Assembly (NCBI GenBank): GCA_025823825.1
Contig: GCA_025823825.1_4720.1
Origin: a phage
DNA length: 64,000 nt
Strand: one strand, 5' to 3'
Shown: positions 62,216-64,000 of the stretch, one piece after another
Position numbering within the stretch: position 1 is the stretch's first letter
How the letters are laid out: every line of letters begins with the position of its first letter
Translations under genes and position numbers: made by a program
The notes under the pieces: generated by a model
Seen by the model: the letters and a program-made list of their open reading frames with translations, nothing else
Database searches by the model: none
What the model was told of the DNA's origin: nothing

Positions 62216-62536
62216 TCAACGTCTTACTTTAAGCGGTATCTTGTTTCGAAAACAATAACACCGGATGGCATGTACGCTACGATTCATTATTTCAGCAATC
62301 TCTTTTAGCGTATGTTTCTTTGCAAGCGTGGCAACCCTAACCCTTTCTTCTGGCGTATATACTCCCCCACGAGGTGGTAGGTCACCCCGTTGTTTTCTCA
62401 ACTTGATGTAACGTGCGCGAACAGAGCACGGTGTTCGGTTCATGCAGCGCGCTACTTCTTTATAGCTCGCTTTTGGTGACGTGCTAAGAATAAGCAGCAG
62501 TGTTTCATCTTCTTTATCCGTCCAACATTTACCCAT
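62216..62536 (-). CDS. Myb/SANT-like HTH repeat protein, array member F (106 aa from ATG; track start is TTG)
   Basis: ATG ([14 protein letters not shown]) with AAGGAG upstream, start overlapping the last codons of the ligase gene; [21 protein letters not shown]; [16 protein letters not shown]. Confidence 0.7.
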
Positions 62537-64000
62537 CTTTTCTATTCTCCTTAACCTTATCAATCATCGAAATAAGCATGTTGATACTTTCTTCTTCGTT
62601 ATCGGTTGCATCCCAGTCTTGGATAACGGGAATCCCCAACGCTTCAGCTTTCGCGAGTTTACTACCGGGATTACTTCCACAGACAAGAACCGTTGTGTTT
62701 TTACTTACACCGCTTGTGATTGTGGCTCCCATGGTCGCTAAACGCGTGGCGAGTTGGTTTCTATCGATGTTGTTGAAACTTCCCGTGATAACGACTCGCG
62801 TATCTAATAACGGTAACTGATTCATTTCGCGTTCCTTAACTGGAGCTGGCGCTACACCGACATCGTACAACAAATCGAAGATATATCCGCGATTTGCTTT
62901 ATCGTAGATGTACGTTAGGATCTGATCGGCTGTGATCTCACCGATACCTTCAACTGCGAGTAAGCTTTCTTTATCAGCAGCTAAAAAGCTATCCACCGTC
63001 TTAAACGCGTTGGCAAGATCGCGCGCTGTGCTTTTACCTACTGTAAGAATACCTAACCCGTAGATGAAACGTGCTAACGTAGTCTCTTTTGATTTCTGAA
63101 TAGCGTCGATAACCTTGAAGGCGCTATAATCCGTAAACCCTTCCAGTTGGCTAACCTGCTCACGAGTTAACAGATAGAGATCAACCGCAGATTGCACCAA
63201 CCCACAGTTGTAGACCTGTTCCAAGAACCGTTCGCCAACACCTTCGATATCCATGACGTCACGACTTACCCAATGAATAAGACGCGCTACCGCTTGGTCA
63301 GGACAAGTTCCGGTTGCAGGACAACGCCAACGCGCTTCATTTTCCTTTTTCGTCAATACTGTCCCGCAGGTTGGACAATGGGTTGGAAAAATGATTTCTT
63401 TTCTTTCCTCTCCGGGACGCACACTCACGATTTGAGGAATGACGTCACCCGCGCGGCGGATAACAACATCATCACCAATGCACACACCTAACCGTTTTAT
63501 TTCGGCTTCGTTATGCAGCGTGATGTTGCTTATCGTTGTGCCTCCAACGAACACAGGTTCGACGCGAGCCACAGGCGTGATGCTTCCGGTTCGACCTACT
63601 TGAAAATCAACATCAAGCAAACGGGTGGCTTTTTCTTGCGCTGGGAATTTCCATGCGCGCGCCCAACGTGGTGCGCGAGAGGTTGCGCCGAGCTTCTCCT
63701 GCATCGCGACGTCGTTCAGTTTTATCACCATACCGTCAATATCAAACATTCGGTGCTCGCGTCCTGCAAGTATATCGCGATGCACCGTAATTAACGCTTC
63801 AGTCCCAACGACGATATGCGATTCGTTAAATAGACCTAATCCTAATGCGGCAACAAACCCCATTTTTGATCCCTGCGTTGCAAACGTGTAAATATTACCA
63901 CCATCCATGAAAACATCGTAAGGGCAGAACAACAAACGACGTTTTGCAACGGTTTGTGGATCCAAACGTCGTAACGTACCTGATGCCGCGTTACGTGGAT
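62529..64000 (-). CDS. ligA: NAD-dependent DNA ligase (LigA-type), N-terminal adenylation region beyond window edge
   Basis: Colinear with bacterial LigA from the adenylation-domain motif [10 protein letters not shown] onward: [13 protein letters not shown], Zn-finger CPTCG...C..C, HhH region, C-terminal BRCT ([15 protein letters not shown]...[15 protein letters not shown]); frame open to base 64000 (…[14 protein letters not shown]…). Confidence 0.85.

Follow-up and report, generated by a model that had tools for sequence, protein, structure and literature searches.

The 3′ part of a LigA-type NAD+-dependent DNA ligase gene at the edge of a Goslar-like jumbo phage sequence

The ligase gene, its domains and its junction with the Myb-like genes

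The window analysed here is a stretch of 64,000 nucleotides of phage DNA (NCBI GenBank assembly GCA_025823825.1, contig GCA_025823825.1_4720.1). Its end is occupied, on the minus strand, by the 3′ part of a gene for a LigA-type NAD-dependent DNA ligase, with the first of a series of small Myb/SANT-like genes as its downstream neighbour (Table 1). Translation of the minus strand gave a frame of 489 sense codons (62529-63998), stop-free to the window edge, as the sequence-only reading had claimed in describing a frame open to the last base. In the ORF listing, the gene starts at an internal TTG (63965), because this listing leaves out frames that run off the window end. The window encodes residues 201 to 689 of a 689-aa protein, and the remaining 602 nt of the 5′ part lie beyond position 64000. 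GC content of the gene is 47.4%, versus 46.5% for the window.

A Pfam profile search was run on the window fragment alone, and all five domain families that had been proposed beforehand, adenylation, OB-fold, zinc-binding, helix-hairpin-helix (HhH) and BRCT, were matched in the order found in LigA. The fragment also scored above the curated cut-offs of two NCBIfam LigA equivalogs, NF005932 (513.1 bits, cut-off 369) and TIGR00575 (478.4 bits, cut-off 444.45). For matches of this strength, chance is not a credible source. Together with the identical full-length alleles described below, domains and equivalog scores bear out the earlier view that the gene adjoining the window end encodes a phage LigA-type ligase, cut by the edge. 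LigB was considered as another identity and rejected, as its model NF005987, with a cut-off of 498 bits, gave only 123.

The architecture (Ia, nucleotidyltransferase, OB, Zn, HhH, BRCT) is the same as in E. coli LigA (PDB 2OWO), from which the phage ligase differs by its divergence, its longer tail and its being encoded by a virus. For the comparison of single residues, we used the residues that are essential in E. coli LigA according to the mutational literature. In the alignment to 2OWO every mappable residue of this list was retained: K115, D117, G118, E173, R200, R208, R277, D285, K290, K314, R333, T334, R379 and the four cysteines, the K115/D117/G118 side being read from the ORF of an identical allele, outside the window. 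Inside the window, motif IV (DGxVxK), motif V (K314), R200, R208 and R277 are all kept, and the stretch AGREHR aligns with 2OWO residue for residue. The GRTG and RRAGDVIP stretches of the OB-fold are conserved with the E. coli enzyme, and the four zinc-finger cysteines line up with C408, C411, C426 and C432. The gene is under purifying selection, with a dN/dS of 0.089 against the orthologue in Escherichia phage vB_EcoM_Goslar and of 0.101 against a second Goslar-like locus (L003).

Table 1. Features of the ligase gene and of its downstream junction in the window.
Feature	Coordinates	Strand	Basis
LigA-type NAD-dependent DNA ligase gene, 3′ 71%	62529..64000	-	Open frame; NCBIfam equivalogs; 100% nt identity to full-length alleles L005-L007
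Adenylation (nucleotidyltransferase) domain, C-terminal half	63636..63998	-	PF01653 (DNA_ligase_aden), positions 133-253/253, E=8e-31
Three adenylation-domain stretches, the last two of them motifs	63960-63998, 63714-63743, 63639-63668	-	Alignment to E. coli LigA 2OWO
OB-fold domain	63405..63626	-	PF03120 (DNA_ligase_OB), E=3e-31
C4 zinc finger (CPTC...C...C)	63300..63380	-	PF03119 (DNA_ligase_ZBD), E=2e-7, 31.1 bits, cut-off 25.8
Helix-hairpin-helix DNA-binding domain	62880..63071	-	PF12826 (HHH_2), E=4e-17; PF14520, E=1e-12
BRCT domain	62622..62819	-	PF00533, E=3e-11
29-residue tail after BRCT	62532..62618	-	Sequences read; E. coli LigA alignment ending at 662/671
Ligase/Myb junction	62529..62552	-	AAGGAG 62552-62547, 10-nt spacer, Myb ATG 62536-62534, ligase stop TAA 62531-62529
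First Myb/SANT-like gene, 106 aa, separate from the ligase	62216..62536	-	Pfam; PHROG 323, E=3e-19

Behind the BRCT domain, the phage protein carries a tail reaching about 19 residues further than the C-terminus of E. coli LigA, an acidic stretch followed by a probable helix. It is present in all the Goslar-like ligase sequences read. Goslar itself varies only at the last residues, ending ...KNDDR where the window ligase ends ...KDG. The tail is absent from relatives at 53% identity, one of which (P0014) ends ...REDELKRELA.

The last codons of this tail overlap the start signals of the next gene. The ligase frame closes on AGA AAA GAT GGG TAA, and shares 8 nt (62529-62536, ATGGGTAA) with the first Myb-like gene, whose Shine-Dalgarno (SD) sequence AAGGAG also sits inside the ligase codons. 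The assertion that the ribosome binding site and ATG of the Myb-like gene lie in the end of the ligase gene could thus be read directly from the sequence. The Myb-like protein matched PF13921 with 35.5 bits (threshold 22.9) and PF00249 with 32.6 bits (threshold 24.4). Its gene is the first in an array of six small paralogues (106-176 aa) lying on the minus strand between 59799 and 62536, whose products share 23-37% mutual identity, combine Myb/SANT-like and sigma-70 region 4-like HTH repeats, and match PHROG 323 (“transcriptional regulator, D5-like”).

The same 8-nt overlap was called in loci L004 to L012, and the junction sequence is the same in L003 (ten other Goslar-like loci). In Goslar (NC_048170), a 235-aa ORF, gp120 (positions 6542-7249 of locus L001), which the window lacks, is found at the junction between ligase stop and Myb start. 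It lies behind the same AAGGAG, with an equivalent ATG, and the Goslar Myb gene begins 4 nt after its stop. The insert, of about 712 nt, has short AGAAA repeats on its flanks. For gp120, searches of Pfam, NCBIfam and PHROG gave no family, tblastn revealed no homologue in the window or in the other loci compared, among them the ten Goslar-like ones, and by these searches it stays an ORFan. On a more distant 259-kb contig (L014), whose ligase is 53% identical, the synteny from ligase to acetyltransferase is kept, but behind the ligase there is a gap of 97 nt, and no Myb paralogue next to it was detectable by blastp.

A scan for sigma-70-like promoters and intrinsic terminators gave no minus-strand site separating the ligase from the Myb genes, a result that says little, as chimalliviruses rely on RNA polymerases of their own. 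Over 59500-64000, the sigma-70 scan returned 4 promoter-like sites versus a mean of 7.4 in shuffled sequence. Co-expression of the two genes had been proposed from their overlap. In such a dense same-strand block, co-transcription, and perhaps translational coupling, is plausible at most. A functional partnership between the ligase and the Myb-like gene is not supported, because Goslar has an extra ORF at the junction, and the distant contig has its 97-nt gap without Myb paralogues.

The N-terminal part of the ligase in public contigs

The sequence-only reading had placed the N-terminal part of the adenylation domain, with the KxDG lysine, beyond position 64000. Three public contigs (L005, L006 and L007), drawn from two NCBI assemblies (GCA_020395325.1 and GCA_012441205.1) and one Logan run, match the last 1785 nt of the window (62216-64000) with 0 mismatches, and each continues into a ligase ORF of 689 aa. 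The contig from GCA_020395325.1, ABDDKD010000007.1, belongs to a Goslar-like genome in an isolate assembly (238,282 nt), and has the same 8-nt overlap. The ORF of L005 contains a full adenylation domain (PF01653, 3-253/253, E=3e-81), and is colinear with residues 11-662 of E. coli LigA (PDB 2OWO, E=1.2e-164). On all three contigs the KxDG motif reads EPKYDGLAIA, with KYDG opposite E. coli K115-L-D-G, at a place outside the window.

Upstream of this motif, also outside the window, L005 has a domain Ia motif, YYYHVKAEPKYTDEEYD, opposite YLYHVMDAPEIPDAEYD in E. coli (pattern YH..D..YD). The NMN-binding residues of this domain in E. coli LigA are, according to the mutational literature, Y22, H23, D32, Y35 and D36. 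Matches to PF22745 (Nlig-Ia) are on record, precomputed, for L005 to L012.

A fourth contig (L002, 1545 nt, GCA_025844135.1) is the source of a partial 514-aa protein named “LigA [Shigella flexneri]”, which is 100% identical to the window protein over their overlap. At the nucleotide level, it overlaps the window by 1180 nt with 1 mismatch, and reaches 365 nt further upstream, through VEPKYDGLAIA. The adenylation N-terminus with its KxDG motif is therefore where it had been predicted to be, at least in the identical alleles and in this near-identical one. Extending the sequence past 64000 had been named in advance as the way in which the ligase could turn out to be a domain fragment; the extension gave a complete adenylation domain on the 100%-identical contigs.

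Searches by protein gave a similar picture. When the window’s 106-aa Myb-like protein was looked up by its exact sequence, 8 loci were returned, and a 689-aa ligase was adjacent in all of them. In a protein database search, the nine closest clusters were 688-689 aa long, with Nlig-Ia and adenylation domains. An exact 33-mer from the window edge had no match among IMG/VR viral contigs. The first 200 codons of the window’s own ligase gene are inferred from identical and near-identical public contigs. In principle, a breakpoint could lie just past 64000, because this phage group is visibly mosaic.

The phage, its relatives and the exchange of the ligase segment

At the nucleotide level, the window is 91.0% identical to Goslar over 62000-64000, and 93.8% over 39001-64000 (85% of the length). 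The order of its genes matches Goslar gp107 to gp121. Goslar, a phage of 237 kb in the genus Goslarvirus, was the sole phage found by megablast in INPHARED (two records, one genome), so that there is no closer cultured relative in that collection. It is nucleus-forming (PMC11895373). By this likeness, the window is part of a Goslar-like, nucleus-forming jumbo phage (chimallivirus) of E. coli/Shigella. The orthologue of the window ligase in Goslar is gp121 (YP_009820806.1, 691 aa), annotated “NAD-dependent DNA ligase”, to which the window fragment is 92.6-92.8% identical at the protein level and 89.7% at the nucleotide level. Goslar gp121 has the same domain order, and occupies the same position in a same-strand minus block (gp107 to gp134).

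Identity to Goslar is unevenly distributed along the window. Between 64000 and about 62000, the window does not differ from L005, L006 and L007 (100% identity), and is only 86-95% identical to Goslar; below about 61,900 it is closer to Goslar (mostly 91-99%, maximum 99.3%) than to L005 (87-98%, mostly 87-95%), as compared over 53700-64000. The ligase segment itself stands further from Goslar, at 86-94% identity, than does the part of the window downstream of about 61.9 kb, where most values are 91-99%. The Goslar-like genomes of isolate assemblies, in turn, are 87-98% identical to the window downstream of that point, so that they share the ligase allele with the window without being the same genome. 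This switch implies a recombination breakpoint at about 61700-62000, in the second Myb-like gene or close to it, and an exchange of the ligase segment as one block.

A D12-class adenine methyltransferase ORF, located 2-3 genes upstream of the ligase and beyond the window (5838-6666 in L005 to L012), is variable in the group. It encodes 275 aa in L006 and L012 and 174 aa in L005, L007, L008 and L011, and is absent from L009 and L010; none is annotated in the corresponding stretch of Goslar.

Goslar-like genomes are present as single contigs (199-240 kb) in the isolate assemblies GCA_025812035.1, GCA_020395325.1, GCA_020241865.1 and GCA_012441205.1. Among our loci, L003, L005, L006 and L008 are contigs of NCBI isolate assemblies, and GCA_025844135.1 holds the 1.5-kb fragment L002. 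The exact Myb protein was indexed in 38 blocks of the collection. Two records display a source name, and both of them give the ligase of the phage a bacterial one, “LigA [Escherichia coli]” or “[Shigella flexneri]”. The occurrence in isolate assemblies suggests either that lytic jumbo phages are frequently carried in cultures, or contamination.

Outside this group, the best-matching bacterial LigA proteins are 45-47% identical to the phage ligase, and uncultured contigs of about 220-259 kb carry ligases at 53-54% identity, as found by protein search. Because of these two levels of identity, we suggest an old acquisition, possibly from a gammaproteobacterial host. PhiPA3, another chimallivirus, encodes a full-length LigA homologue, gp257 (YP_009217336.1, E=3e-112), which at 34% identity is further from the Goslar-type ligase than the bacterial LigA proteins are. 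The NAD-dependent ligase of T5-like phages (subunits A and B; PHROG 3359 and 3498) is of the same family but is made from two ORFs. Such a split enzyme was rejected for the Goslar type, whose ligase is one continuous polypeptide and falls into PHROG 3869, a family of full-length enzymes (E=1.5e-130).

It had been stated that LigA-type enzymes are relatively uncommon among phages, most of which would use ATP-dependent ligases. When the window fragment was used as a tblastn query, LigA-type matches were obtained in 1,210 of 50,697 phage records; in 193 of them, 80% or more of the query was covered at a single place. Among the 1,210 are T5-like split ligases and many jumbo phages. In the same search, ATP-dependent ligases matched in 2,391 records with the T4 ligase and in 1,475 with the T7 ligase. 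With about one in four of the matches that the three queries gave, LigA-type ligases are a substantial minority rather than a rarity. Separate PHROGs families exist for the full-length NAD-ligase (phrog_3869) and for both subunits of the split one, so that “relatively uncommon” overstates the case. Of the gut jumbo phages described as NAD+-synthesising in a 2024 survey, more than half are reported to have LigA (PMC11662467).

Proposed function, alternatives and meaning

We are highly confident that the window holds the 3′ 71% of an intact ligA-type gene of a Goslar-like, nucleus-forming E. coli/Shigella jumbo phage, encoding a canonical NAD+-dependent ligase. The sequence data above establish which enzyme this is, and that its gene is complete, keeps its catalytic residues, evolves under purifying selection and lies in conserved synteny; the use of NAD+ as adenylate donor and the sealing of nicks are predicted from domain Ia and from the equivalog-level match. 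LigA enzymes bind NAD+ with the help of domain Ia, which holds the NMN moiety; NMN is set free as the lysine of motif I becomes adenylylated, and the AMP is then passed to the 5′-phosphate of a nick, which is sealed by attack of the 3′-OH. The phage enzyme would follow the same course: its domain Ia would bind the NMN part of NAD+, its KxDG lysine would be adenylylated as NMN leaves, and AMP would go to the 5′-phosphate at the nick before the 3′-OH seals it, with the OB, zinc-finger, HhH and BRCT domains predicted to encircle and clamp the nicked duplex. Its likely role would be the joining of Okazaki fragments, and the sealing of repair and recombination nicks in phage DNA.

By analogy, it would most likely act inside the chimallin-bounded phage nucleus, because Goslar-type phages replicate within the chimallin shell. 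The homologous PhiPA3 ligase gp257 localises inside the phage nucleus, as seen with a GFP fusion (PMC10643120). A literature search combining “Goslar” and “gp121” found nothing, and in its main text the chimallivirus core-genome paper does not name DNA ligase as a core gene.

Two other origins for the frame at the window edge have to be weighed. If the gene were a truncated domain fragment or a pseudogene, lacking the adenylation lysine, domain Ia or both, the window would look the same, as it contains only the C-terminal 489 residues of the protein. For this allele, such a reading is already contradicted: KYDG is present on three identical-allele contigs and on a 99.9%-identical fourth, domain Ia on the three full-length ones, the nine closest protein clusters are full-length with both N-terminal domains, and a dN/dS of about 0.09-0.10 is that of a constrained gene. 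We regard it as extremely unlikely. The gene could also be a host bacterial ligA, present by contamination or by recent capture, rather than a resident phage gene. The names under which NCBI lists the same or almost the same protein, “LigA [Escherichia coli]” and “LigA, partial [Shigella flexneri]”, point that way, as does the fact that gammaproteobacterial LigA are its best cellular relatives. However, the supposedly bacterial records are contigs of about 238 kb colinear with Goslar, and at 45-47% identity even the best bacterial proteins are remote. Moreover, phage synteny is conserved even where the ligase of a relative is only 53% identical, and the GC content fits the phage. The likelihood of a host gene is close to nil.

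A third alternative accepts an intact ligase and differs on its purpose. The enzyme could serve mainly in counter-defence or repair, for instance by resealing nicks made by host nucleases, or by making the joining of phage DNA independent of a host LigA possibly excluded from the nucleus, with the tail as a docking or import element. The extended tail, absent from the 53% relatives, would fit, as would the compartmentalisation of proteins by the phage nucleus noted in a passage of a review (PMC12908238) and the reported pairing of NAD+ synthesis genes with LigA in jumbo phages (PMC11662467). In the same passage, on the other hand, DNA ligase is placed among the phage- and host-encoded DNA-processing proteins that the shell separates from the cytoplasm (PMC12908238), and conservation of the tail may stem largely from the overlapping SD and ATG and from the low divergence within the clade. 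Such a function is also compatible with a replicative role and does not exclude it. As the main purpose of the ligase, we find it very improbable. A related speculation, to which we give little credence, is that the tail is a phage-specific module for import into, or docking in, the chimallin-bounded nucleus, and that the phage keeps a LigA of its own because the host enzyme is of no use to DNA that replicates in the shell. If this were true, NAD+ supply to the nucleus would be a weak point against host defences that deplete NAD+.

The preferred reading, an intact canonical ligase of a nucleus-forming phage, brings nothing categorically new. The ligase was already known, being annotated in the RefSeq record of Goslar and present as identical alleles in public assemblies, and the finding matters little beyond correct annotation. 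Public databases label the ligase genes of Goslar-like phages as bacterial, “LigA [Escherichia coli / Shigella flexneri]”. The comparison also shows that Goslar-like phages circulating together swap the ligase segment as one block. A complete NAD+-dependent ligase is documented in this group of nucleus-forming phages of E. coli, and the joining of phage DNA presumably needs NAD+ in the nucleus.
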